Shown here: positions 697 through 23,661 of the stretch, one piece after another
Position numbering within the stretch: the first letter of the stretch is position 1
How the letters are laid out: each line of letters opens with the position of its first letter
Assembly: GCA_964430885.1 (NCBI GenBank)
Contig: CAYSHM010000029.1
Location: 1-24,000, forward strand
DNA length: 24,000 nucleotides
Reading direction: 5' to 3'
From: an uncultured archaeon
Lineage (GTDB): Archaea > Thermoplasmatota > Penumbrarchaeia > JASLWR01
The notes under the pieces: model-generated
Seen by the model: the letters and a program-made list of their open reading frames with translations, nothing else
The model's database searches: none
What the model was told of the DNA's origin: nothing
Made by a program: the position numbers and the translations under genes

Positions 697-2388
697 CTAT
701 TTCTTCCTGTTCTTCATCTGCTTCTGGATCTTCTTCCATGTATCTCGAAGGCCTACTGTCCTGTTGATCACCAATTTATCCTCGGTGGTGTCAGGATCGA
801 TGCAGAAATATCCCGTTCTCTCGAACTGGAATCCGAACAATGATTCCTTAAATTGTAAAGCAGGGTCAACCTTGCAGCCCTTCAGAACATTCAATGAATC
901 CAGAGAAAGATAATCGAAGAACTCCCCTTTATCCTGGGATAAGGGATCCTCAACAGTGAACAATCGGTCGTAAAGCCTTATCTCTGCGTCAACACCGTAT
1001 TTTGCCGATACCCAGTGAAGTGTTCCACGGACCCTCCTTCCGTCGGGGGCATTTCCGCCTTTGGTCTCAGGGTCCACTGTGCAACGGAGCTCGACAACCT
1101 TATCACCTTCCTTGATAACATCCGTACAGGTTATCAGATAGGCGTTCCGTAGCCTTACCTCTCGGCCCTTGGTCAAACGGAAGAACTTCTTTGGAGGATC
1201 CTCCATGAAATCGCTCTGCTCAATATATATCTCCTTGGTGAACTTGACCGTTCTAGTACCCAGTTCAGGTTCCTCGGGATTGATTATGACATCCATATCC
1301 TCTTCCTTGTCCTCGGGGTAATTCTCCATAACTACCTTCAGAGGGTCAAGAACGCCCATGAATCTGGGGGCAGTTCGGTTCAGATGGTCTCTGACACAGG
1401 ATTCAAGAAGCTCTATTGCTATTGTGCTGTTCACCTTAGCGATGCCCACCCTGGCGCACAGGTCCCGAATGGACTCTGGGGAATAACCCCTGCGTCTTAA
1501 TCCGCTCAAGGTCGGCAGACGCGGGTCGTCCCAACCGTTAACATATCCCCTTTCCACAAGGTCCAGGAGTTTCCTCTTGCTCATAACAGTATATGTCAGG
1601 TTTAGCCTAGCAAACTCGGTCTGCTGAGGTCTATAAACCCCCAGCTCGATCAGGAACCAGTCATAAAGCGGCCGATGATTCTCGAATTCAAGGGTACATA
1701 GTGAATGGGTGATTCGTTCAATGGAATCCTCCAGACCGTGGGCCCAATCGTATGAAGGATAAATGCACCATTTATCCCCCGTATGGTGATGGGTTTTATG
1801 AAGTATCCTGTACATGATAGGGTCGCGCATGTTGAGATTGGGGTGGGACATATCTATTTTGGCTCTTAGAACCTTATCCCCGTCCTGAAACTCGCCTTCG
1901 CCCATCCTTCTGAAAAGGTCCAGGTTTTCTTCCACACTTCTATTGTGATAAGGACTGTTTACACCCGGCTGGATGAATGACCCCCTTTGTTTGCTTATCT
2001 CTTCGGCACTTTGATCGTCAACATAAGCTTTGCCTTTTTTGATTAGGTCCTCGGCATAATCATACATTTCCTGAAAATAATCTGAAGCGAAATATATTCT
2101 ATCCTCCCAGTCAAAACCCAGCCATTTTATATCCTCCTTTATTGATTCAACATACTCCTCATCCTCCTTGGAGGGATTGGTATCGTCAAAACGAAGGTTG
2201 CAAAGACCATCATACTCCTGGGCTATTCCGAAATTGAGGCATATTGATTTTGCATGCCCAATATGGAGATAACCATTTGGCTCAGGAGGAAAACGTGTAT
2301 GGACCCTGCCGTTATGTTTCCCTATTTCATTATCATGATCGATCATTTCTCTTATGAAATCCTTACCCTTTACCGCTTCGTCAGTCAT
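697..2388 (-). CDS. glnS: glutaminyl-tRNA synthetase (GlnRS), bacterial-type length with no N-terminal extension
   Basis: 563 aa. HIGH motif (PNGYLHIGHAKS) and KMSKS variant (VMSKR). It aligns by eye end to end with E. coli GlnS blocks: TRFPPEPNGYLHIGHAKSICLNFGIAQ, CNLRFDDTNP, LRAKIDM, WCIYPSYD, THSLCTLEF, GWDDPRLPTLSGLRRRGY, VRLRNAY, FQFERTGYFC. GGTGA lies 8 nt upstream of the ATG. Confidence 0.95.
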   Translation of the reverse strand: MTDEAVKGKDFIREMIDHDNEIGKHNGRVHTRFPPEPNGYLHIGHAKSICLNFGIAQEYDGLCNLRFDDTNPSKEDEEYVESIKEDIKWLGFDWEDRIYFASDYFQEMYDYAEDLIKKGKAYVDDQSAEEISKQRGSFIQPGVNSPYHNRSVEENLDLFRRMGEGEFQDGDKVLRAKIDMSHPNLNMRDPIMYRILHKTHHHTGDKWCIYPSYDWAHGLEDSIERITHSLCTLEFENHRPLYDWFLIELGVYRPQQTEFARLNLTYTVMSKRKLLDLVERGYVNGWDDPRLPTLSGLRRRGYSPESIRDLCARVGIAKVNSTIAIELLESCVRDHLNRTAPRFMGVLDPLKVVMENYPEDKEEDMDVIINPEEPELGTRTVKFTKEIYIEQSDFMEDPPKKFFRLTKGREVRLRNAYLITCTDVIKEGDKVVELRCTVDPETKGGNAPDGRRVRGTLHWVSAKYGVDAEIRLYDRLFTVEDPLSQDKGEFFDYLSLDSLNVLKGCKVDPALQFKESLFGFQFERTGYFCIDPDTTEDKLVINRTVGLRDTWKKIQKQMKNRKK

Positions 2389-3156: not shown

Positions 3157-3203
3157 ACCTGGAGATATTTAAAGAAGAAATGTTCAAGTATAGAGAGAAG
3201 AAG

Positions 3204-3275
3204 TAGCCCCGACCAGATTCGAACTGGTGGCGAGAGATCCAGAGTCTCTCATGTTAACCTCTACACCACGGGGCT
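3204..3275 (-). tRNA. tRNA-Gln (anticodon CUG)
   Basis: The reverse complement is AGCCCCG-TG-GTGT-AGAGGTTA-ACAT-G-AGAGA-CTCTGGA-TCTCT-CGCC-ACCAG-TTCGAAT-CTGGT-CGGGGCT-A. It is 72 nt with an A1-U72 first pair and discriminator A. No CCA is encoded. Confidence 0.9.
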
Positions 3276-5265: not shown

Positions 5266-5976
5266 TCAACATACTGGTATCAAACCCTTGTAGAATATTG
5301 CACCTTCATCAAAACCCATCAGGACCGGATACACCTCTACACCAGAATCAACGGCCTTTCTGAAAACCTTGGCGAAATCGGGGTCAGTGTCCTCCTTAGG
5401 TGCGAAGCAGATCGCATCATCCCGGAATACAAGTATTATCAGAGCCGCTCTGTGGCCTTCCCCTTTTGCCTTTATAAGCTCCTCCACATGCCGCTTGCCC
5501 CTGGTTGTAGGTGCATCAGGGAATAGAGCTCTTCGGTCAATAGCCAATGTACAACCCTTGACCTCCACCCATATATTCTTGCCCCCTTTTATTACCAAAA
5601 AATCGAGCCTGCTTTTACCATAGGTCTGTTCGGGACTACATTTTTCAATTTCCCCGAAAGGACTGATGGTGGCATCGTTCAGGATGGTTTGAGCTATATC
5701 CCGGTGGAATCCGGAATTGACAAGCACCCATTTATCCTCCACCTTTCCAGCAATAAGATCCCATCGGGTCTTTCGATTAGAGTTCTTAGCCTTTCTAATA
5801 AGCACCTGATTCCCTGGACATAGTATCTCCTTAAGACGACCTGGATCCCTGACATGCACCTTTTCTACCTTGTTTGTACCCTCGTCTTCAATATTCACCA
5901 ATCCGAGGAACCTGTTAGGTCGTTCTACAAATACCGCCCGAGCGTCATAATGTATCTCTAACAATTTCCTCTTCAT
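5266..5976 (-). CDS. sfsA: SfsA (sugar fermentation stimulation protein homolog; nuclease-fold DNA-binding protein)
   Basis: 236 aa. The N-terminal FVERPNRFLGLV (RPNRF signature), central WVEVKGCTL and C-terminal DAPTTRGKRHVEEL blocks are typical of the SfsA family. The gene starts only 40 nt downstream of the thioredoxin-like gene on the same strand. Confidence 0.9.
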   Translation of the reverse strand: MKRKLLEIHYDARAVFVERPNRFLGLVNIEDEGTNKVEKVHVRDPGRLKEILCPGNQVLIRKAKNSNRKTRWDLIAGKVEDKWVLVNSGFHRDIAQTILNDATISPFGEIEKCSPEQTYGKSRLDFLVIKGGKNIWVEVKGCTLAIDRRALFPDAPTTRGKRHVEELIKAKGEGHRAALIILVFRDDAICFAPKEDTDPDFAKVFRKAVDSGVEVYPVLMGFDEGAIFYKGLIPVC

Positions 5977-6016: not shown

Positions 6017-6637
6017 TCACCTTCTTCTGGATCGTCGTTCCATTACATAATTGATCACAAGAACTGCTACGAATATCCCAATGAGACCGAATAGTATCCA
6101 TGAGTTGGATTCAAGAGGACATGTCGGTGCGGAAGAAACGGGTGTGTCAGTTGTCATTGCGGTCATGAAATCTCCTGGACCCACATACCCCTTTATCCTG
6201 TTGTATTCCTCCCCGGAGGTATTGATGAAAACAACTGTTGGATATCCTTCCACATCGAACTTTTTAACCAGAGAAGGACTGTCATCACCGTCTATCTTCA
6301 CCGAAAAGAAGTCAACAGCTGTGCTTATTATATCTGGGTTCTTGAAGGTTTCTGCTTCAAGATCTGCACAGAATCCACACCAATCAGCATGAAAATAGAG
6401 TATAATTGGCATATATGGTAGATCAACACCGCCAGGTATATCCTCATATGAATTCCAGATTATATTTTCCGGTGCGGTCTGGTTGAATGAATCCCCAGTA
6501 TTGTTAGTGGTGTTACCATCACTGGCGGCTTCCGACATCTGGGAAATTGGCCCCATACCAAGAAGCATTATGGAAATTAAGACCAAAAATATTGGAAAAA
6601 ATGTTTTCAATGATCTTCCTCTATCAGCATATACCAT
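6017..6637 (-). CDS. membrane-anchored exported thioredoxin-fold protein (DsbD-gamma/Thioredoxin_7-like, WCGFC active site)
   Basis: It has an N-terminal signal or anchor (FFPIFLVLISIMLLGMG) and a linker with N-x-S/T sequons. The Trx fold carries YFHADWCGFCADLEAETF and a cis-Pro at EGYPTVVF. A C-terminal TM ends in RRSRRR. I prefer the ATG at 6637, which lies 1 nt after the upstream TGA (TGAtATG). The longer ORF starting at 6682 would overlap the upstream gene by 44 nt. Confidence 0.75.
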   Translation of the reverse strand: MVYADRGRSLKTFFPIFLVLISIMLLGMGPISQMSEAASDGNTTNNTGDSFNQTAPENIIWNSYEDIPGGVDLPYMPIILYFHADWCGFCADLEAETFKNPDIISTAVDFFSVKIDGDDSPSLVKKFDVEGYPTVVFINTSGEEYNRIKGYVGPGDFMTAMTTDTPVSSAPTCPLESNSWILFGLIGIFVAVLVINYVMERRSRRR

Positions 6638-6638
6638 A

Positions 6639-6887
6639 TCAGCATTCCCCCTGGTCTCTTGATAGATTATTTTCCTCATCATTCCCTATCTTCTCGACCC
6701 CGCAGGATGAAGCACATCTGCTTCCACGGTCGGTATAACGGGACAGAATGAAGGGTACAACATAAGCACTCACAATGAGAAGTAAACCCAAATAATAAAT
6801 GTATTTTATATAGAGTCCCACGATTATAAGCACTATACCTGAAATGAAAAAGATCATTCCCCATCTTGTACATAACGGACATCCCAT
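6639..6887 (-). CDS. Cys-rich two-TM miniprotein (82 aa), family unknown
   Basis: A strong RBS, GAGGTGAT, lies 3 nt upstream of the ATG at 6887. The sequence is MGCPLC, two TM helices joined by a KY turn, then a basic/acidic tail with CASSC and a terminal Cys. Its stop codon abuts the start of the thioredoxin-like gene. Confidence 0.6.
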   Translation of the reverse strand: MGCPLCTRWGMIFFISGIVLIIVGLYIKYIYYLGLLLIVSAYVVPFILSRYTDRGSRCASSCGVEKIGNDEENNLSRDQGEC

Positions 6888-7008
6888 GTTATCACCTCAT
6901 TTATCTCATTCCCATAGCAAGTCAAAATTCCCGGCGTTCATTCTATGCTTTTAATAATTCAAAATAAAACAAGAATATTATGGGCCTCAATTTAATAATT
7001 ATTTGGAT

Positions 7009-7036
7009 GGACCGGAAAGCCCTATCACTCCGGTCC
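7009..7036 (-). terminator. GC-rich hairpin downstream of trx
   Basis: GGACCGGA (7009..7016) and TCCGGTCC (7029..7036) form a perfect 8-bp stem with a 12-nt loop, 13 nt after the trx stop. No strong T-run follows. Confidence 0.35.
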
Positions 7037-7048
7037 ACTCTGATTAAA

Positions 7049-7369
7049 TTAAATATACTTCTCGATCTTGCCCGCCAACTGATCCTTGGACTGAAAACCC
7101 ACGATCCTGTCAACCTGATTACCGCCCTTAATAATTAGGAGGGTCGGAATACTTCGGACGCCGAACTTCATGGATGTGGCCGGATTGTCATCTACATTCA
7201 ACTTTCCTACAACAAGTTTTCCTTTATAATCCTTGGCCAATTCTTCAAGGACCGGACCTATCATCCTGCACGGACCGCACCAAGGGGCCCAGAAATCCAG
7301 CAGTACCAGTTCATTGTCGTTCACTATGCTGTCAAAAGTGGAATCCGTTACTTTAGTAGTTCCTACCAT
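7049..7369 (-). CDS. trxA: thioredoxin
   Basis: WAPWCGPC active site and the cis-Pro motif SIPTLLI. The product is 106 aa from the ATG at 7369. AGGTGATC lies 5 nt upstream and overlaps the arsR stop codon. The GTG at 7378 in the ORF track is less likely. Confidence 0.9.
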   Translation of the reverse strand: MVGTTKVTDSTFDSIVNDNELVLLDFWAPWCGPCRMIGPVLEELAKDYKGKLVVGKLNVDDNPATSMKFGVRSIPTLLIIKGGNQVDRIVGFQSKDQLAGKIEKYI

Positions 7370-7374
7370 TGTGA

Positions 7375-7701
7375 TCACCTATTATCTATCTCCTTCAAGA
7401 ACTCTGTGTCTTTTCGAAGCTGTTCAATTATCACCTGATGCATAATATCCATTGCATCAAGTATCTTTTTGTTCCCGATGCTGTAGAACACATTAGTGCC
7501 GTCCTTTCTAGATCTGACTATCTTTCTATCCCTTAGGAACCCAAGATGCTGGGACATGCTGGGCTGGCTCAACTCAAGCTCTTCGCACAGTTCACCCACT
7601 GACAATTCCCCATTCTTCAAGAGACTAAGTATTCTGAGCCTTATGGGGTTTGTGAACACCTTACAGATATCAGCATGCATCTTCAGTATTGCATCGGACA
7701 T
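7375..7701 (-). CDS. ArsR/SmtB family winged-helix transcriptional regulator
   Basis: ADICKVFTNPIRLRILSLLKNGELSVGELCEELELSQPSMSQHLGFLRDRKIVRSRKDGTNVFYSI is the canonical ArsR HTH region. It has two Cys (ADIC, GELC) but no ELCVCD arsenic-site motif. Confidence 0.9.
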   Translation of the reverse strand: MSDAILKMHADICKVFTNPIRLRILSLLKNGELSVGELCEELELSQPSMSQHLGFLRDRKIVRSRKDGTNVFYSIGNKKILDAMDIMHQVIIEQLRKDTEFLKEIDNR

Positions 7702-8019
7702 ATTATATCCCCGTTAAGCAGAGTTCAGACATCAGAGTCACTGCCTGACCTCCTGCCTACTATATTCACATATAAGAATATTATTATATTTATATATTAT
7801 TATATGATTTAATTTGGAAGAGGATTGGTGACAATTCATTGATGAAATGAAAAGCATCTTCAAATGAAAAATCAGTTCTTCAATAAATCGGGAAAAGGTA
7901 ATATTTCAATATTGCATTCAAGGTATTTGTATTAAGGTTGTTGCTTGCAGATTTATTTGACAATCCTGATATTTGGGTATGTTTAATACAGTTTACACCG
8001 AACGGATGGAGGAATTCCC

Positions 8020-9681
8020 GTGAATCCGGATATAGAAGAAGAAAATAGAAAGGAAGGTTACGACGATTGGTTGTTACCCGAGGAAACCCGTGAAATGCTG
8101 GTTGAGATGTTCCAAGAACTCAAAGACGATGTCAATCTGGAAGTCTTTTTGAACGATGACAACGAGGATCCTTTCAATCAACTGACCTATCAATTCACAA
8201 GGGACCTGGCTAGGATATCTGAAAAGATAAAGGTCAATGTAAATGACCTGAAAGGCGGAAGTGCAGAGAAATTCCATGTCGAGAGGGGCCCTTCCGTTCT
8301 GATATCTCCTGAAAAATACAGCATAAGGTTCACCGGAGCACCTGCCGGCGAGGAGGGGAAATCATTTCTGAAGGGATTGATACTTGCCTCCACTGGCGAT
8401 AGTGAACTAGAGGTGGCCCAGAGGAAACTGCTGGCCGAACTCAATGAAAAGCGCCAGGCAATGATATTCGTTACTCCGGGATGTCCATACTGTCCGGGTC
8501 AAGTGGTGAATGCCTTCAGAGCTGCAGTAGAAAGACCTGACCTTGTAAAGGCAGAGTGTATTGAGGCCAGCGGGAACATTGACCTGGCAAGGAAATATAA
8601 TGTGGGTGCGGTACCCCATACCGTGATCAATGGAATCACCACCAGCAGAGGACTTGAACCGGAAGATAGATTCATAGAGGAACTTATAACACTTGAGCTC
8701 GAGGAAGACATGAAAAAAGCTAAAGCAAAGCCTTCCCTCAAGGTTCCGGAATCAGGGACCGAAGATGTAGAACTGGTCATCATAGGAGCCGGACCTGCAG
8801 GAATCACTGCGGGAATATATGCAGTGAGGAGCGGAATGAAAGCGGTCATTATTGAAAAGGACAATGTGGGCGGACAGGTGGCCCTGACCCCCGTTGTAGA
8901 AAATTATCCCGGCTTCAAGAACATACCTGGGAAAAACCTCATGGACATATTGAAAGCCCAAGCCCTAGACTATGTTCCCATTCTTGAGAATGAGGGTATT
9001 GAGGAGATCAAAGTGGGTAAAAGGATAGAGGTAATCTCATCCAAGAGACGGTTCCTTTGCGATTCCGTGATCGTGGCCACTGGAGCAGAGCATAGAAAAC
9101 TGGGAGTAAAGGGTGAAGAGCGTTTATCGGGACGCGGGGTCTCCTACTGCGCTACCTGCGATGGTTATCTTTACAGGGGCAAAAAGGTCCTTGTAGTAGG
9201 CGGCGGTGATTCCGCCCTGACTGACTCGCTATACCTGAACAGCCTTGGGGCCAAGGTGCGTATTGTCCATAGACGCGACGAGCTGAGGGGCCAATCCTAT
9301 CTAAGAGAATCAATAGAGAGGGAGAACATACCTGTTATTTGGAATAGTGTGGTGAAACGCATAGGAGGTAAGGATAAGGTTAAGGGAATTGAACTTGAGG
9401 ACACTTCCAGCGGTGCAATCAAGAAGATGTCCGTAGATGCAGTATTCATCTCAGTTGGGTACAATCCCAATAGCCAACTGCTCCAAGATATCGGAGTAAA
9501 GGTCAATGAATACGGTTTTGTCCAAGTTGGTAGAAGATGTCGGACCAATATACCCCGCATCTATGCTGCCGGTGACATCACCGGAGGTGTCAGACAGATC
9601 GTGACAGCGGTCAGCGAAGGGGCTACCGCTGCACTTTCCGCATATGAGAACCTGCATAATCCTTACTGGAAATCCCGCTGA
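8020..9681 (+). CDS. fusion of a protein-disulfide-oxidoreductase (PDO)/AhpF-N-terminal-like double Trx-fold domain to NADPH thioredoxin reductase
   Basis: GTG start with GGAGG 6 nt upstream. The N-terminal 235 aa or so resemble archaeal PDO (IRFTGAPAGEE, IFVTPGCPYCP with Cys codons at 8482 and 8491, YNVGAVPHTVING). The first-fold CxxC is absent. The C-terminal part is TrxR: VIIGAGPAGITAG (FAD), CATCDG (Cys codons at 9148 and 9157), VVGGGDSA plus HRRDELR (NADPH). Confidence 0.9.
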   Translation: MNPDIEEENRKEGYDDWLLPEETREMLVEMFQELKDDVNLEVFLNDDNEDPFNQLTYQFTRDLARISEKIKVNVNDLKGGSAEKFHVERGPSVLISPEKYSIRFTGAPAGEEGKSFLKGLILASTGDSELEVAQRKLLAELNEKRQAMIFVTPGCPYCPGQVVNAFRAAVERPDLVKAECIEASGNIDLARKYNVGAVPHTVINGITTSRGLEPEDRFIEELITLELEEDMKKAKAKPSLKVPESGTEDVELVIIGAGPAGITAGIYAVRSGMKAVIIEKDNVGGQVALTPVVENYPGFKNIPGKNLMDILKAQALDYVPILENEGIEEIKVGKRIEVISSKRRFLCDSVIVATGAEHRKLGVKGEERLSGRGVSYCATCDGYLYRGKKVLVVGGGDSALTDSLYLNSLGAKVRIVHRRDELRGQSYLRESIERENIPVIWNSVVKRIGGKDKVKGIELEDTSSGAIKKMSVDAVFISVGYNPNSQLLQDIGVKVNEYGFVQVGRRCRTNIPRIYAAGDITGGVRQIVTAVSEGATAALSAYENLHNPYWKSR

Positions 9682-12114: not shown

Positions 12115-12290
12115 TTGACGAAATCCATTTATTATAATTCTCGTGAAGTCATTTTAATGTACAAAATCTAATAGGACTTCCGTAATTTCAAACGCCTTTT
12201 TCTTAGAATCCATTTTTTAATTCACCTGTTTTATTAATAATGAACCCCATTTATTACGCTGTAATAATTATTATCGACGGTAGGAAAATC

Positions 12291-14504
12291 ATGGAACAAT
12301 ATATGAAAAAAATCAACATAGGCATCTCGGGCATGACCTGCGCCAAATGCGCATTGAATGTGGAAAAAGGCCTGAATTCCCTCAGGGGTGTGGAAAAAGT
12401 TAGTGTTAATCTTGCCGATGAATCGGCAGCTATTGTTTATGATAACTCTATTACCAACAAGACAAATATCAATGATGCAGTCCGAAAGGCGGGATACCGA
12501 CCCTTTGAACCCGAAGAGGAAGCAAGTGAGGAAGAAAACCGTAAAAGAGAACTTAAGAATAAGGTCATAAGGTTCTCCTTAGGATTCGCTTTGGCCGGAC
12601 CAATTATGCTCATAATGTACTTGATGAAGCTTGACCTTGTGATGATATCCAGAGTTAACATATTTCACTATATACTGTTTGGACTGGCCACACCCGTCTT
12701 CATATATATAAGCGCACCTATATTCAGTTCGGGCTTCAGATCTCTCCGGAACCGATCACTCAACATGGAAGTAATGTATTCAATGGGCATAGGTATCGCC
12801 TATGTCTCCAGTGTATTGGGCACCTTTGATCTATTCCTCAATGAGAATTTCATTTTTTACGATACATCCCTAATGTTGGCGTCATTCCTAATCCTGGGAA
12901 AATTCCTGGAAGCAAGAGCAAAGGGTAGAACCTCAAGGTCCATAAAGAAGTTAATGGGGCTTAGACCCGATTCTGCAAATATAATTGTGGATGGAAAGGT
13001 GAAAACAGTTCCTCTGGATATTGTAAATCCGGGTGACATTCTCGAAATCAGACCAGGTGATCGTGTTCCGGTTGACGGGAAGATAACAAAGGGAGAAGGA
13101 CTTGTTGATGAATCCATGATAACCGGCGAACCCATATCAGTCAGGAGAACCATTGGTGATAGTCTGATTGGAGGAACCATTAACAAGAACAGTATTCTTA
13201 GATTCAAAGCCACCAAAGTTGGCAATGATACAGTACTTTCAAGAATAATCGCTTTGGTGAAGGAAGCCCAGGGCAGCAAACCTCCGGTCCAGCGCCTGGC
13301 AGATAGGGTGGTTGCTTATTTCATACCTGTGATACTGGCAATAGCTATACTATCCTCAATTGCCTGGTACACTTACGATGGCTCACTGATCTTCTCCACC
13401 ACGGTTCTGATAAGCGTACTGGTTGTTGCCTGCCCTTGTGCTTTGGGATTGGCTACTCCCACAGCTGTGACCGTGGGAATTGGAAGAGCCGCCCAACTCG
13501 GAATCCTGATAAAAAGAGGTGAAATACTGGAAGTCGCCCCAAATTTGGATACAGTTGTATTTGATAAGACCGGAACATTGACCCAGGGTCATCCAAAAGT
13601 GATCAAGGTAATACCTTACGGCACACGAAAAAAGGACCTGCTTCTTTATGCCGGAAGTCTTGAAAAGAATTCCAACCATCCTCTTGCTGAAGCGGTTGTG
13701 AAAGCTGCTGAAAAATCCGGTCATAAATTACTTGATGTACACAATTTTAATTCGATCGAAGGAAAAGGAGTCGAAGGACAGATAGGAAATAAAAATGTCA
13801 TTGTGGGGAAACTGGGATTTCTCAATGAGAAGGGATTAACAGCGGAAAAAGAATATTTGGACGGATTAGGAAATGAATCTTCACAAAGCACTATAGTTTT
13901 TGTTGGTATGAACAACAGATTCATAGGCGCACTGGCCATTAGAGATAAGGAGAAAGAAAACTCGCACCAGGCAGTTAAAACCCTGAAGGACATGGGTTTA
14001 GAAGTGATAATGATAACCGGCGATTCTCAACAAACGGCAGAGAATATTGCAGAGATCCTCGGCATAGAAAAGGTGATCGCTGGTGTACTGCCTGAGGAAA
14101 AAGCGAAGGAAGTAAAGAAACTGCAGGCAGAGGGAAAAAAGGTAGCCTTTGTGGGAGACGGTATTAACGACGCTCCGGCCCTGGCACAAGCGGATGTCGG
14201 TATAGCTATTGGTGGAGGAACTGACGTAGCAGTGGAAAGCGGGGGCATCGTGCTCATGAAAGATGATCCTATAGATGTAGCCAGATCCCTCCTGATCAGC
14301 AAAAAGGTCATGGGCAGAATAAAGCAGAACCTCTTCTGGGCATTTGCCTATAATAGTGCTTTGGTACCCCTGGCTGCAGGTGGGTTGACCATATTCACGG
14401 ACCTCACATTCCCGCCTGAACTTGCAGGAGGGGCAATGGCCCTTTCATCTGTCACGGTGATCTCGCTATCATTGATGCTGAAAAAGTATGAACCGAAGTT
14501 GTGA
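12291..14504 (+). CDS. copA: copper-translocating P1B-type ATPase
   Basis: The N-terminal HMA domain carries GMTCAKC. Other motifs are TGE (ITGEP), the CPC metal site (ACPCALGLATP), DKTGTLT phosphorylation site, GDGINDAP hinge and HP (SNHPLAEA). I prefer the ATG at 12291 (MEQYMKKINIG) over 12240, which adds 17 hydrophobic residues upstream of the HMA fold. Confidence 0.95.
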   Translation: MEQYMKKINIGISGMTCAKCALNVEKGLNSLRGVEKVSVNLADESAAIVYDNSITNKTNINDAVRKAGYRPFEPEEEASEEENRKRELKNKVIRFSLGFALAGPIMLIMYLMKLDLVMISRVNIFHYILFGLATPVFIYISAPIFSSGFRSLRNRSLNMEVMYSMGIGIAYVSSVLGTFDLFLNENFIFYDTSLMLASFLILGKFLEARAKGRTSRSIKKLMGLRPDSANIIVDGKVKTVPLDIVNPGDILEIRPGDRVPVDGKITKGEGLVDESMITGEPISVRRTIGDSLIGGTINKNSILRFKATKVGNDTVLSRIIALVKEAQGSKPPVQRLADRVVAYFIPVILAIAILSSIAWYTYDGSLIFSTTVLISVLVVACPCALGLATPTAVTVGIGRAAQLGILIKRGEILEVAPNLDTVVFDKTGTLTQGHPKVIKVIPYGTRKKDLLLYAGSLEKNSNHPLAEAVVKAAEKSGHKLLDVHNFNSIEGKGVEGQIGNKNVIVGKLGFLNEKGLTAEKEYLDGLGNESSQSTIVFVGMNNRFIGALAIRDKEKENSHQAVKTLKDMGLEVIMITGDSQQTAENIAEILGIEKVIAGVLPEEKAKEVKKLQAEGKKVAFVGDGINDAPALAQADVGIAIGGGTDVAVESGGIVLMKDDPIDVARSLLISKKVMGRIKQNLFWAFAYNSALVPLAAGGLTIFTDLTFPPELAGGAMALSSVTVISLSLMLKKYEPKL

Positions 14505-15904: not shown

Positions 15905-18718
15905 TCAGTTCTTCCCCCTTATTATTATTATTAATACTAGTATTATCAACAGAACAAGCGCTACTATAATCAGCCAAACCATCAATGAGAATGAAGACTT
16001 CTTTTCTTCAGTTTTTTTAGCGGACTGATTCTCCTCAATAGGTTCATTCTTAATATGGATCTCAATGCTGTGTTCGCCGATGTTATTTTCACCCTTAAAC
16101 AATCCGGCGATCAGACTATAGCTGCCGTTATGATATTGGGAAGTGTTCAATTGGCAGGTCCATGAGCTGCTGGGTGGGCCTAGATCGATCCATCCATATC
16201 CTTCAAGTCTAATACGGATAGACCAGTTCTCCTGATCAGTCGGGTATACCGCATTCCCGCTTATCTCAGCAATACCTTCCAGTGTAGAATTGGACACCGG
16301 ATACTTGATCAGTATGGAATTCTGGGGGGGACGCTTGATAACAGTGATGTTCACTTGTGCCGAAGCAGAGAGATTCCCGTCACTCACATGCAAAACTATT
16401 CCGTGCCGTCCCGGGGGCAGCACTGATTCGAAGAGCGGATCACCTGATAGGAATCCAGTGAGGTTGGAGGTCCAGTTGAACTGTATCGGCAAGCCTTCAG
16501 GGTCCAAACTTCCTGTTGCATTGAATAAGATAGTGTCATCATTATAGAACATTTCATCGTTATCCGGTGAGGAAATATCAATATATGGAGAAAGATCAAC
16601 ATGAGGTTCTTCGGGCGACCTTACCGTAACATTCACCCAATCCTTATCCACGCCACCTCTCCCATCGTTTACGGTGATCTCTAATCGGTAATAACCCGGT
16701 TGGCTAAAATTCATAATGAACCTGTCTTCATACCGGAGGGAACCATTGGGGAACTTCCAGATATATACAAGGGGATCTGAATCTGGATCATATGATGAAC
16801 TGCAGTCAAAAGTAACATTCTCCCCGATCAGAACATCTGCATCATCGGATACAACCGCTACTGGGACATGGTTCTCCCAATCCGACATGAACACTTTTTT
16901 AAAGAATCCGGCAACCTCTACATTATCAATTATCAGGGCAACCTCTCTGTTGTTAGTGATGGAATTGTGGTTCCAGTTTATGCTGGATACCAAGGAATAT
17001 CTGCCGTCAACTATCATACCTTTGTTGTGCGATTTGTTCAGGTTGGTCATTTCTGAATCAAATAGCTTTACTGTTAAATTCAGGTTCTCGGCCTCAGCGA
17101 TCTCCTGAAGATACTCAACGTCCGGCTCGTTGTCAGGTACTGTATTCTGGTCATAATCCGATGAATCCAGAAGTATCTTAACCTCACATCCCCTTCTGGC
17201 AGCATCAAGTAAGGATTCAATATAAGGGTTTGGACCTTTCTTTGCGTTCTCGTTCCACTCCCTGTCAAAATAGAATATCTCCGCCAAAACTTCCTCCTGG
17301 GCCGATTCCAGTAGATGGGTTACTCCCTGATCCTCAATAAGAGATGTATCCGGACTGATCACCGGAACGATATGAGTACTCTGTCCCGATGTATTGGAGT
17401 CGAAATGGAAATGCGGTCTGTAGTCGCCGTTGGGTGTGGACATATTTACTATAAAACCCTCTACTGGCCCGCCGAACTTGTAATGACCTGGAGTGAAGGG
17501 GAAAATATCAGGATAACTGCTGTTCCGGTCATTTTCAAATATACTGTTCAGGTATTCCGCCAAATCATGATCCTCCACCAGAACACCCCAACCCCTGTTT
17601 CCGGCTATGGAGTCGGTTGGTACTCCGGACTGTTTCCAGTTCTCCGTCATTACTACTGATCTATGATCATCGAATATAGCAAATTTGGAATGGAGAAAAT
17701 AATATCTATTGTGGATATGCTTATTCTCATCGTTTATCATAAATCTGACATCAGCACCTCTCTCATAGAGTTCCTGACAGATAAATTTCTCCTGGTTAAC
17801 ATCGGGATTCTGGTCCCCTGTATTTTCCATATGCCAGGCAACCGGGCCGCCTTCCAGTAGAAGATTTACTTCAACACCTCGGTCAAGAGCTTCGAAAAGG
17901 TGTTGGGCAATATGAATGTTAATGAACTGGTAAAGAGATATATTGATGATCGAATCTGCTGAATCGATCTCCCTTGAAATTATATCAAAAGACCCGTCCG
18001 GCGACACGAAAGGAATTATCGCTCCATTCACAGTGAAATTTGAAGGCCGGATCTCCTTCTGGCCCATCCAATGGTTTCGGTAATGGGCCCAATCCTGTCT
18101 CGTATCAGTATCAACATAGGGACCTGATATTCCATCTTTGTTCCGGGTCAGTACCTCTCCCTGGCTTGGATCGGGTATTGAATCCCCGCTCCATCCGGTC
18201 AGGGAGGGTGGGTCCTCACCCCAAGCAAGGGCATCGATGATATTATTGCCATTATCCAGAAGCTGAAGTTCGTCCTTTTCATTGGCCATTTTGAAAGTAT
18301 TATGCATCCCCGTGTCCGGAACGTCAATGGTTGTGTTAGCCCATTCAAGATCGGCACGGAATCCCATATCTTCATAAAAAGCTGTGGCGTTGCCCGTGAC
18401 ATAGAATGTCTGACCTGGTTCGATAAATGTGGACCCAGGAAAAATGATCCATCCCTCTCCGTCGTCTATCTTCCAGACCGACATGTCAACCGTAGTATTA
18501 CCCTGATTGTAGAGGGACACAAATTCATCAGGCTCGTACACATCTGATTCGGGTCTGACGGTGTTGGGGTATACTTCCACCATGAGAATATCCCCATTCC
18601 CTCGGGAGATTGTAGGGGGAACGGTGTTTCCACTTAGGGACATTGTTGAAAAGGTAGATATTAAAAATAACAACACTAGCAAGACTGCTGATAAAGTGCG
18701 GGTGTTCTTCGATTTCAT
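15905..18718 (-). CDS. surface-anchored multidomain protein: signal peptide, lamin-tail domain (LTD), two PLD-type HKD domains, PKD/Ig-like repeats, C-terminal TM anchor
   Basis: 937 aa. The LTD is MVEVYPN...DEFVSLYNQGNTTVDMSVWKIDDGEG. HKD motif 1 is LHSKFAIFDDHRSVVMTEN and HKD motif 2 is SHNKGMIVDGRYSLVSSIN. PKD-like blocks are VTFDCSSSYDPDSDPLVYIWKF and FNATGSLDPEGLPIQFNWT. The C-terminal anchor is LMVWLIIVALVLLIILVLIIIIRGKN. There are about two dozen N-x-S/T sequons. Confidence 0.85.
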   Translation of the reverse strand: MKSKNTRTLSAVLLVLLFLISTFSTMSLSGNTVPPTISRGNGDILMVEVYPNTVRPESDVYEPDEFVSLYNQGNTTVDMSVWKIDDGEGWIIFPGSTFIEPGQTFYVTGNATAFYEDMGFRADLEWANTTIDVPDTGMHNTFKMANEKDELQLLDNGNNIIDALAWGEDPPSLTGWSGDSIPDPSQGEVLTRNKDGISGPYVDTDTRQDWAHYRNHWMGQKEIRPSNFTVNGAIIPFVSPDGSFDIISREIDSADSIINISLYQFINIHIAQHLFEALDRGVEVNLLLEGGPVAWHMENTGDQNPDVNQEKFICQELYERGADVRFMINDENKHIHNRYYFLHSKFAIFDDHRSVVMTENWKQSGVPTDSIAGNRGWGVLVEDHDLAEYLNSIFENDRNSSYPDIFPFTPGHYKFGGPVEGFIVNMSTPNGDYRPHFHFDSNTSGQSTHIVPVISPDTSLIEDQGVTHLLESAQEEVLAEIFYFDREWNENAKKGPNPYIESLLDAARRGCEVKILLDSSDYDQNTVPDNEPDVEYLQEIAEAENLNLTVKLFDSEMTNLNKSHNKGMIVDGRYSLVSSINWNHNSITNNREVALIIDNVEVAGFFKKVFMSDWENHVPVAVVSDDADVLIGENVTFDCSSSYDPDSDPLVYIWKFPNGSLRYEDRFIMNFSQPGYYRLEITVNDGRGGVDKDWVNVTVRSPEEPHVDLSPYIDISSPDNDEMFYNDDTILFNATGSLDPEGLPIQFNWTSNLTGFLSGDPLFESVLPPGRHGIVLHVSDGNLSASAQVNITVIKRPPQNSILIKYPVSNSTLEGIAEISGNAVYPTDQENWSIRIRLEGYGWIDLGPPSSSWTCQLNTSQYHNGSYSLIAGLFKGENNIGEHSIEIHIKNEPIEENQSAKKTEEKKSSFSLMVWLIIVALVLLIILVLIIIIRGKN

Positions 18719-22497: not shown

Positions 22498-22536
22498 TTT
22501 GATCATTTATGCCGCAATCGAGTGAGGGTGGGAAAA

Positions 22537-23349
22537 ATGAAAAATAACCATCGAAAAAATGATGAAAACTTCTCTATTAGGTGTTTATTGATTTTCGTAT
22601 TATTTATTATGGCTTTATCATTTACAATTCCAGGTGTTATTGCCCACGGCCCGTCCAAAATCGCACTGGAGATTGATGACGAACTTAATCAACTCAAAGT
22701 TACCCTAGACCATAAGGTGGCAGATCCCTCTAAGCACTATATATATCAAATAGTTATTAGGAAAAACGGCAATGACTATCTTGACTTCAATTACACCATC
22801 CAACCTGACGATACTTCTTTTTACCACACATATGAGGTGAATGTAACTGAAGATGATGTCGTTAAAGTCACGGCCTACTGCAATGTCGGCGGAGAACTAT
22901 CCGCTTCTTTAGACCTATCTAAGGAAACTGCGGCACAAACAGAAAATCCCAAACTATGGCCCTATCATGCTGGTCTAATGGGTGCTGGGTTATTGTGCAT
23001 GCTCAGCGCGGTAATTATAGCAAAATTCCTGAAGGGCAAGAAAAAATGGTGGCTCAAGATCCATAAACCTCTCGGAACCTTTGGCGGTTTACTAAGCTTC
23101 GGTGGTCTTGTCATGGCTTACATCATGGTAGAAAAGGCAGGCGGCGACCACTTCTCAGTACCACACACCTACCTGGGTTCTCTTACCATGCTGGCAATTA
23201 TTCTAACGGCCATATTGGGAAATCTTCAATTTAAGGTCAAGAACAAGAAGTATATGGCGACACTGCACAGATGGATAGGCAGAATATGCTTGGCTCTTAT
23301 GCTGTTCACCATTTTAGGCGGACTGTTCGCTGCCGGTGTGATCAGATAG
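22537..23349 (+). CDS. exported metal-binding beta-sandwich domain (superoxide-reductase-like signature) fused to a 4-TM module with one His per helix (di-haem cytochrome-b-like)
   Basis: The ATG at 22537 is preceded by GAGGGTGG; the ORF-track start at 22522 is a GTG. The signal peptide ends in GVIA followed by HGPS. The ectodomain has AHGP, DHKVADPSKHYIYQIVI and AYCNVGGE. The four TM helices begin PYHAGL, KIHKPLG, PHTYLG and LHRWIG, and the cytoplasmic loops are Lys-rich (KGKKKWW, KVKNKK). Confidence 0.7.
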   Translation: MKNNHRKNDENFSIRCLLIFVLFIMALSFTIPGVIAHGPSKIALEIDDELNQLKVTLDHKVADPSKHYIYQIVIRKNGNDYLDFNYTIQPDDTSFYHTYEVNVTEDDVVKVTAYCNVGGELSASLDLSKETAAQTENPKLWPYHAGLMGAGLLCMLSAVIIAKFLKGKKKWWLKIHKPLGTFGGLLSFGGLVMAYIMVEKAGGDHFSVPHTYLGSLTMLAIILTAILGNLQFKVKNKKYMATLHRWIGRICLALMLFTILGGLFAAGVIR

Positions 23350-23445
23350 TTCTGATATGAATGCACATTTATTTCCCAGTAATTAATCCCATAGTTAGTT
23401 TAAAGGCATATGCCCTGCATCTGAAAAAAATCAGGAGACCGAAAT

Positions 23446-23661
23446 ATGGAAATACATAAATGGGAATCTTCAACCGGTATAATTATTGGGATAGATTATG
23501 ATAAATGTAAGGGGCATGAGGAATGCGTGGAGGTATGTCCTGTGGAAGTTTTCCAGATGAAGGAGGGGAAATCGATTGCCAATAATATTAACAAGTGCAT
23601 AGAATGCTGTGCATGCGTTATGGCCTGTCCTGCGGGAGCCATTGAGCACAGCTCTTGCTAG
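23446..23661 (+). CDS. small 2x[4Fe-4S]-type ferredoxin with a non-canonical first motif
   Basis: 71 aa. Motif 1 is CKGHEECVEVCP (C-x2-H-x2-C-x3-CP). Motif 2 is CIECCACVMACP, which is canonical. AGGAG lies about 8 nt upstream of the ATG. Confidence 0.85.
   Translation: MEIHKWESSTGIIIGIDYDKCKGHEECVEVCPVEVFQMKEGKSIANNINKCIECCACVMACPAGAIEHSSC

Follow-up and report, generated by a model that had tools for sequence, protein, structure and literature searches.

A candidate trans-membrane electron conduit joining a superoxide reductase-like ectodomain to a cytochrome b561 core in an uncultured archaeon

In the current view, strict anaerobes face superoxide solely with soluble cytoplasmic (rarely periplasmic) superoxide reductases (SORs), and cytochrome b561 conduits are all but confined to eukaryotes. 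What, then, is the role of a gene from an uncultured archaeon of the Thermoplasmatota whose product appears to join an exported SOR-like domain to a membrane module of the haem-binding type? The gene lies in the first 24,000 nucleotides of contig CAYSHM010000029.1 (assembly GCA_964430885.1), the whole stretch analysed here and referred to as the window. A first-pass annotation, made from the sequence alone, had read the locus as an SOR-like metal domain fused to a four-helix di-haem module and followed by a ferredoxin. We propose that the protein conducts electrons outward to an extracytoplasmic metal site and that this site would reduce an oxidant, superoxide being the leading candidate; to this reading we give an even chance of being right. 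Our confidence is higher for a haem-based path across the membrane that ends at a metal redox site outside the cytoplasm, and lower for superoxide as the substrate. The features concerned are these:

22537..23349, + strand: SOR-like-ectodomain/cytochrome b561-core fusion gene; open reading frame of 270 amino acids (aa), stop codon included in the coordinates
22537..22644, + strand: signal peptide, aa 1-36, with a basic n-region, a hydrophobic core and an A-x-A-type c-region; predicted cleavage VIA/H37
22645..22920, + strand: ectodomain, aa 37-128, a predicted seven-stranded beta-sandwich; candidate metal ligands H37, H59, H67 and C115, and invariant Q89
22951..23346, + strand: four-helix cytochrome b561 core, aa 139-270, PF03188; outer pair H144/H210, inner pair H176/H244, outer-loop H205
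23446..23661, + strand: 71-aa ferredoxin-like gene, 96 nt 3' of the fusion gene, with Fer4 dicluster Pfam matches

The ATG start of the fusion gene has a Shine-Dalgarno-like GGGTGGG directly ahead of it. An alternative GTG start lies at 22522, five codons upstream, and the first-pass residue numbers are higher by five because they were counted from it; from the ATG, its H149/H181/H215/H249 become H144/H176/H210/H244. NCBIfam holds no model for the fusion protein. The translation contains an N-terminus ending VIA/HGPS, about 90 residues without a hydrophobic stretch and four hydrophobic helices with one His each, so that the signal peptide, ectodomain and four trans-membrane (TM) helices described at first are all there. 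The motifs quoted for them (VIA/HGPS, DH-x7-HYIYQIVI and VTAYCNVGGE, with Gly at Cys+3) are likewise present. Since Lys-rich loops follow TM1 and TM3, the positive-inside rule would place the ectodomain and H144/H210 outside the cell and H176/H244 inside. An AlphaFold2 model built from a 31-sequence alignment (pLDDT 88, pTM 0.75) has seven strands and four TM helices; prediction from the single sequence was poor (pLDDT 62), and the alignment was used instead.

Judged by its profile matches, the membrane module is the core bundle of a eukaryote-type cytochrome b561. PF03188, the eukaryotic cytochrome b561 family, matched residues 144-233 at 27.3 bits (gathering cut-off 23) and was also matched by 30 of 31 full-length relatives (best E 7.8e-11). 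PF01292, the prokaryotic b561/CybB family, stayed below its threshold (14 bits, E 0.045, cut-off 30.1). Thus the four-His, four-helix module of di-haem type that had been proposed stood, and its assignment to the CybB type gave way to PF03188. When the 31-sequence profile was compared with the PDB, it found Arabidopsis cytochrome b561 (4o6y, E 3e-9) and human Dcytb (5zle, E 5e-7), and H144, H176, H210 and H244 aligned with the four haem-His columns of 4o6y. The top PDB matches of the AlphaFold2 model in Foldseek were 4o6y, 4o7g and 5zle. All four TM His residues were invariant in the 127 near-complete modules found among the best 150 relatives. We infer that the module holds a pair of b haems with bis-His ligation, each close to one face of the membrane.

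The module shares with eukaryote-type b561 and Dcytb (PF03188; 4o6y, 5zle) four consecutive His helices paired 1+3 and 2+4, one predicted haem per face and a presumed role in trans-membrane electron transfer, as well as a counterpart (RVPHAxLG) of the SLHSWLG-like motif before helix 3. It differs in having the four core helices only, and not the six of the eukaryotic proteins: the flanking TM1 and TM6 are missing and a candidate metal ectodomain is added at the N-terminus. The hosts of the family are prokaryotes, not known to use ascorbate. E. coli CybB (PF01292) is similar as a minimal four-helix di-haem protein with electron exchange with superoxide at the outer face, whereas it belongs to another Pfam family, has no ectodomain and is reported to oxidise superoxide and send the electrons inward to quinone. 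One further residue stands out in the membrane module. H205 (23149-23151), in the outer loop, is kept in 110 of the 127 modules within a GGxH-F/L-R/S-V-P-H motif, five residues before H210, and could be a docking or electron-transfer residue, or a metal-binding one like the apical His of Dcytb.

To what family, then, does the ectodomain belong? An exhaustive HMMER search returned 1335 cluster representatives at E<=1e-3, while a word-indexed protein search found the query alone and, with the 31-sequence profile, 5 proteins. The ectodomain was found in 69 of the best 150 relatives, from which the conservation counts are drawn. H59, H67, Q89 and C115 were invariant in 69/69 and G119 was kept in 68/69, with a mean pairwise identity among the ectodomains of about 35%. 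From the order of the strands, all the invariant residues would lie on loops at one end of the sandwich. H37 was kept in 60 of 65 ectodomains, the remainder having Asn or Asp. The residues that the first-pass annotation had singled out, in the ectodomain and in the TM helices, thus held up in the survey of homologs. Where the source records name these proteins, they call them 'hypothetical protein' or give generic labels, and the ectodomain founds an unannotated family.

The signal peptide is conserved as well, with Ala at position -1 in 57/63 members, Val or Ala at -3 in 56/63 and a hydrophobic h-region in 62/63. Because a signal-peptidase-type site is conserved before H37, the mature protein should begin with His, and cleavage is predicted at A36/H37. 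The His-first N-terminus that had been predicted for the window protein alone is therefore a family feature (A-x-A/H in 60/65). A bacterial ectodomain (L060, 2183-2587, + strand) carries the Tat signal SRRKFLG and has Ser at the position of the N-terminal His. Tat signals are typical of cofactor-bearing exported redox proteins, and this one implies folded, cofactor-loaded export in some bacteria, in which the N-terminal His is dispensable. In L023, a PGF-CTERM-like sorting signal or anchor forms the C-terminus of a Thermoplasmatota ectodomain, and a second paralogue (5451-5801, - strand), convergent to the first, has Asp for the otherwise invariant Cys (VTAYDSLFG).

When 65 ectodomains were scanned singly, PF01880, the SOR family, was the commonest Pfam match (37/65), the matches being weak (best E 1.2e-4). 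Other Pfam families matched at most 8 of the same 65: CopC matched 3 (best E 0.013), DOMON none and cupredoxins none, and DUF1775 was absent from the 25 most frequent families in this set. With hhalign the whole domain aligned to 120 genuine SORs (P 7.5e-4), in a register that pairs H37 with H16, H59 with H41, H67 with H47, C115 with C111 and G118 with H114 of the P. furiosus SOR. The score of 25.4 was reached by none of 200 column shuffles (11.2+-2.3, maximum 19.6) and also exceeded the reversed control; with only three SORs as the target, the last strand alone aligned. In the reciprocal direction, a hidden Markov model of the ectodomain scored SORs at up to 14 bits and reversed SORs at no more than 3 bits. 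Foldseek gave the A. fulgidus SOR (E 0.03, probability 0.97-0.99, TM-score 0.43-0.45) among the best matches to the ectodomain, together with SoxYZ, other Ig-like folds scoring similarly. Taken together, these comparisons indicate that the ectodomain is remotely but significantly related to the SOR iron domain.

Beside the 1Fe SOR/neelaredoxin proteins (PF01880; 1do6, 4bff), the ectodomain has three His and the axial Cys in register, the H-x-P and C-N-x-x-G motifs and anaerobe hosts, and would, from its model, have a similar small seven-stranded Ig-like sandwich. It differs in its spacing (H-x7-H against H-x5-H), in lacking the fourth His and the Glu-Lys pair, in an invariant Gln on another loop, in a Sec-type signal that would make the first ligand residue 1, in its tether to a haem module and in a Pfam score below the cut-off. 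As the fourth His and Glu-Lys are missing, we call it SOR-like and not a member of the SOR family. The proposal of an exported SOR-like ectodomain in which the Cys and all but one of the four His follow the SOR register is supported by Pfam, hhalign and Foldseek alike. The accompanying remark that known SORs are cytoplasmic was too strong, since SORGOdb predicts seven SORs to be Tat-exported (PMC3116461). Those proteins also place an SOR-type domain outside the cytoplasm of an anaerobe, but they are canonical His4Cys and soluble, with no membrane haem partner described, and membrane-wired SORs are absent from SORGOdb (PMC3116461).

Could the resemblance be due to chance, the ectodomain being a metal-free, structural Ig-like spacer? 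Ig-like folds are common, MHC II, FnIII and SoxYZ come up at similar Foldseek E-values, and every SOR signal lies below the curated thresholds. The invariance of H59, H67, Q89 and C115 at such low overall identity would be unexpected for a spacer, however, and so would their predicted clustering on loops at the same end of the sandwich, a profile score above all the shuffles and the persistent pairing of the domain with haem modules; we regard a spacer as extremely unlikely. One other match was rejected. The PX domain of human PI3K-C2alpha appeared in the PDB profile search (E ~1e-3) over about 45 residues around H-x7-HYIY-x-V-x-I, and was judged a chance local match because half of the domain was covered, the Cys region was excluded and neither Pfam nor the fold supported it. 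We tentatively ascribe it to a local beta-hairpin and composition effect.

The His-first N-terminus raises a different possibility, metal handling, in which an N-terminal histidine brace would bind Cu (or Fe) and the b561 module would reduce cupric or ferric ions so that they can be taken up or detoxified. Histidine-brace proteins (CopC, YcnI, LPMO) are likewise beta-sandwiches with a conserved His that comes first after signal-peptide cleavage, here predicted. A His directly after the signal-peptidase site in 60/65 ectodomains, the weak CopC matches in 3/65 and the conserved outer-loop H205 would all suit this role. So would the ZIP metal permease upstream of L037, the nearest full-length relative in the metagenome scan, and the JGI label 'iron-regulated membrane protein' on one cluster member. 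Eukaryotic b561/CYBDOM proteins are reported to be ferric reductases (PMC10784552, PMC10784544). Profile similarity to histidine-brace proteins is nevertheless negligible, and CopC, YcnI and DOMON profiles match the ectodomain far less often than SOR does. The invariant Cys and Gln are foreign to histidine-brace sites and, to our knowledge, not features of them. Metal transporters and copper genes are not among the recurrent neighbours at the related loci, and the Tat-exported L060 member has Ser for the N-terminal His. We consider metal handling quite improbable. The window does encode, at 12240-14504 (+ strand), a CopA-type copper-exporting P-type ATPase with one HMA domain, but it lies 8 kb away and is unlinked; its presence is evidence that the host handles copper, and it bears on the choice between Cu and Fe in that respect alone.

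Is the fusion peculiar to this archaeon? The architecture is not unique to it: 50 of the best 150 relatives have the fused arrangement. We also collected 29 loci from GTDB, 73 from metagenomes and several from individual look-ups, 96 of which have an open reading frame with a domain of the family; they reduce to 72 non-redundant loci. The ectodomain and the b561 module are fused in 9 of these 72 and encoded by adjacent genes in 13 (L005 and L013 were checked by hand), the ectodomain occurs alone in 14 and the b561 module alone in 36. The two modules thus travel together in evolution. The named records that carry the ectodomain come from Syntrophus/Syntrophales, other Deltaproteobacteria, Thermoplasmatota and Methanomicrobiales, and those with the b561 module only from ANME-1, Methanothrix/Methanocrinis, Desulfobacteria and Spirochaetes; the hosts are anaerobic lineages.

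Further domains join the two modules in some relatives. Some combine the ectodomain, Ig repeats, DOMON and b561 in a single chain (P0003, P0005, P0006, P0017 and P0027 contain DOMON), others consist of DOMON-b561 alone or have DOMON encoded by its own gene ahead of the TM gene, and P0050 fuses the ectodomain, b561 and a GSDH-type propeller in one protein. The window protein has no DOMON match in Pfam and is accordingly not a CYBDOM protein. It resembles the CYBDOM proteins of plants and animals, in which electrons flow outward, in the fusion of an extracytoplasmic redox domain to a b561 conduit; its tip would be a non-haem Cys/His site and not a haem b domain. MsrP-MsrQ offers another parallel, in which a di-haem b membrane subunit (FRD-type MsrQ) feeds electrons from the inside to the periplasmic molybdoenzyme MsrP. 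There too a haem b protein powers an extracytoplasmic repair or defence enzyme, although both parts come from unrelated families. In the literature searched we found no paper on an SOR-like domain joined to b561, in agreement with the original statement that no characterised protein of this architecture is known. What sets the protein apart is the new metal domain proposed for the end of a trans-membrane conduit of the b561 type.

Certain neighbours recur at the related loci. WrbA, the type IV NAD(P)H:quinone oxidoreductase (>300 bits, cut-offs 132-141), adjoins the b561 gene in three ANME-1 loci and directly follows the split ectodomain and TM genes in one deltaproteobacterial and one Syntrophaceae locus. 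In Methanothrix the order is a 1-Cys peroxiredoxin, b561 and then, on the opposite strand, a genuine cytoplasmic SOR and TspO, an arrangement present in 5-6 non-redundant loci. The Methanothrix/Methanotrichaceae cluster comprises L014, L016, L017, L018, L021, L022 and L026, whose four-helix b561 of about 183 aa has an N-terminal anchor and no ectodomain. From these neighbours it would seem that b561 proteins of this subfamily contribute to defence against oxidative stress even where the SOR-like ectodomain is missing. In L013 a ferritin-like protein is encoded upstream.

A different set of neighbours would fit another function. GSDH lies directly upstream of a stand-alone ectodomain in at least 9 non-redundant loci of a Thermoplasmatota-like clade, and a cupredoxin lies between the ectodomain and the TM gene in 3. 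The operons with GSDH (~535 aa) and ectodomain are those of L083/L084 (2310-3427), L023, L028, L089, L092, L098, L103, L105, L108 and L109, some of which add a true cupredoxin (121 aa, PF13473/PF00127) and a short two-helix b561 fragment. They point to a possible extracytoplasmic electron-transfer chain. By extension, the ectodomain could be a one-electron carrier and not a catalyst, a His2-Cys-Gln site comparable with blue-copper or rubredoxin-type sites that would link GSDH-type dehydrogenases and cupredoxins with the membrane haems, the flow possibly running inward to quinone or the cytoplasm. The strictly invariant residues, two His, Cys and Gln, match those that coordinate T1 copper in stellacyanin-type proteins; conservation is lower at H37 than at these four, and P0050 joins the ectodomain, b561 and GSDH in one chain. 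The ligand order of T1 cupredoxins is not found, however, there being no His or Met after the Cys and the invariant Gln standing before it, and cupredoxin families match no ectodomain where PF01880 matches 37 of 65. Because a separate, genuine cupredoxin is present in the same operons, the job of the ectodomain is likely to differ. Loci with WrbA, peroxiredoxin or SOR neighbours, and the variants with DOMON, are consistent with outward flow, and neither GSDH nor a cupredoxin was found near the window gene. We hold such a relay to be possible, though rather unlikely.

For the donor at the window locus itself, the ferredoxin encoded downstream had been put forward as a candidate, on a path from ferredoxin through the two b haems to the metal site; in a strict form of this circuit it would be dedicated to the conduit and co-transcribed with it. 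The ferredoxin gene is indeed on the same strand 96 nt away, the arrangement is repeated in other assemblies of the source organism, and a low-potential ferredoxin is a plausible donor in anaerobes. Of the two [4Fe-4S] sites ascribed to it, the second has a canonical motif (C51-x2-C54-x2-C57-x3-C61-P), while the first is not of the four-Cys type (C21-x2-H24-x2-C27-x3-C31-P) and has His in place of the second Cys; there are also an extra Cys55 and a C-terminal Cys71. The protein may therefore hold a His-ligated or 3Fe cluster. Its best NCBIfam matches are HgcB/HgcAB-like, below the cut-off, which does not speak for a b561 donor. A small ferredoxin lies within two genes of the family gene in 1 of the 72 non-redundant loci, the window's own, and the conserved synteny that a dedicated donor would lead one to expect has no equivalent in the other 71. 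The nearest full-length relatives (L031-L040), included among them, have unrelated neighbours and no small ferredoxin. Moreover, the spacer carries an A/T-rich TTTAAA box and the ferredoxin's own ribosome-binding site, so that the ferredoxin may be transcribed separately. A dedicated ferredoxin donor thus looks highly doubtful: it is possible in the source organism and is not a property of the family.

We return to the outward conduit and how it would work. Removal of the signal peptide would leave an ectodomain that starts at His37, a small beta-sandwich probably descended from the SOR iron domain. One metal ion would be bound by H37, H59, H67 and C115, with Q89 or the free N-terminal amine substituting for the missing fourth His of SOR; iron is the more likely metal in these anaerobes. 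Electrons would enter from a cytoplasmic or membrane reductant pool, for which WrbA, the recurrent neighbour in relatives, is a candidate source; at the window locus the ferredoxin or a flavodoxin might serve. They would then pass from the inner haem (H176/H244) to the outer haem (H144/H210) and on to the exposed metal site, where an extracytoplasmic oxidant would be reduced; superoxide, or an oxygen species related to it, is the leading candidate for that oxidant. Protection of the surface of an oxygen-sensitive cell would be the result. We favour this outward conduit because of the probable SOR descent, the outward direction in b561 and CYBDOM proteins, the WrbA, peroxiredoxin and SOR neighbours, the anaerobic hosts and the DOMON variants. 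The homologies, the conservation, the topology, the coupling of the modules and the neighbourhoods are observed; the binding of haem and metal, the cleavage of the signal peptide, the identity of the metal, the geometry of the site, the direction of flow and the substrate are what we would expect from them.

Several observations weigh against this proposal. PF01880 falls short of its cut-off of 22.2 bits, at 13.0 bits with the full protein and 15.9 with the ectodomain alone, and no SOR was found at E<=10 in the PDB sequence-profile searches. The fourth His ligand is absent in 69/69 ectodomains, Cys+3 being Gly, Ala, Ser, Tyr or Phe, and any His within 8 residues after the Cys occurs in 2 of the 69. 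The catalytic Glu-Lys is not found before the first His, where the residues are those of the A/V-x-A signal-peptide c-region; the pair cannot occur in this family, whose signal peptide takes up that position. The ectodomain alignment shows no conserved basic residue at the ligand end, and H37 itself is Asn, Asp or Ser in a few members. The oxidative-stress neighbours occur mostly at the relatives with the TM module only, and not at the window locus, and the clade with GSDH propellers and cupredoxins, together with the triple fusion, would fit an electron relay, possibly with inward flow.

A more specific version of the outward conduit can be imagined, in which the ectodomain would hold an undescribed metal centre, the alpha-amine and imidazole of the N-terminal His forming a histidine brace that, together with H59 and H67, would provide the four equatorial nitrogens contributed by four His in SOR, and C115 serving as the axial ligand. 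The protein would then be the first membrane-bound, outward-facing superoxide (or O2/H2O2) reductase, connected through its two b haems with NAD(P)H/WrbA/quinone or with ferredoxin, and would act as a surface shield of strict anaerobes, including syntrophs and methanogen relatives, against reactive oxygen species. We offer this as a speculation that is unlikely to hold in full. More generally, bacteria and archaea of anoxic habitats repeatedly couple a b561 core to extracytoplasmic domains of SOR-like, DOMON and GSDH-type propeller kinds. If the outward conduit is correct, it would reveal a new way for a cell to use cytoplasmic reducing power at its surface, together with a new SOR-derived metal site, and the family would include prokaryotic counterparts, possibly ancestors, of eukaryotic CYBDOM proteins.

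The rest of the window adds some minor observations. An aminotransferase gene precedes the fusion gene; the flavodoxin lies 7 kb and a thioredoxin/thioredoxin-reductase cluster 13 kb upstream of it, with no demonstrable link. This redox cluster, at 6017-9681, comprises genes for an ArsR-type regulator, for two proteins of the thioredoxin fold and for a 553-aa AhpF-like fusion in which a protein-disulfide-oxidoreductase-like N-terminus precedes a thioredoxin reductase. A class-I synthetase at 697-2388 (- strand) scores as GlnRS (TIGR00440, 718 bits, cut-off 426), and a tRNA-Gln(CTG) gene lies near it at 3203-3275 (- strand). GlnRS in an archaeon would be unusual. A homologue of PF01877, an archaeal family of RNA-binding proteins, is encoded on the contig as well, so that the signals for the host's domain of life are mixed; the flanking sequence contains no ribosomal markers. 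Finally, at 15905-18718 (- strand) there is a predicted protein of 937 aa with a lamin-tail, two PLD-like and PKD/Ig domains, an unusual combination.

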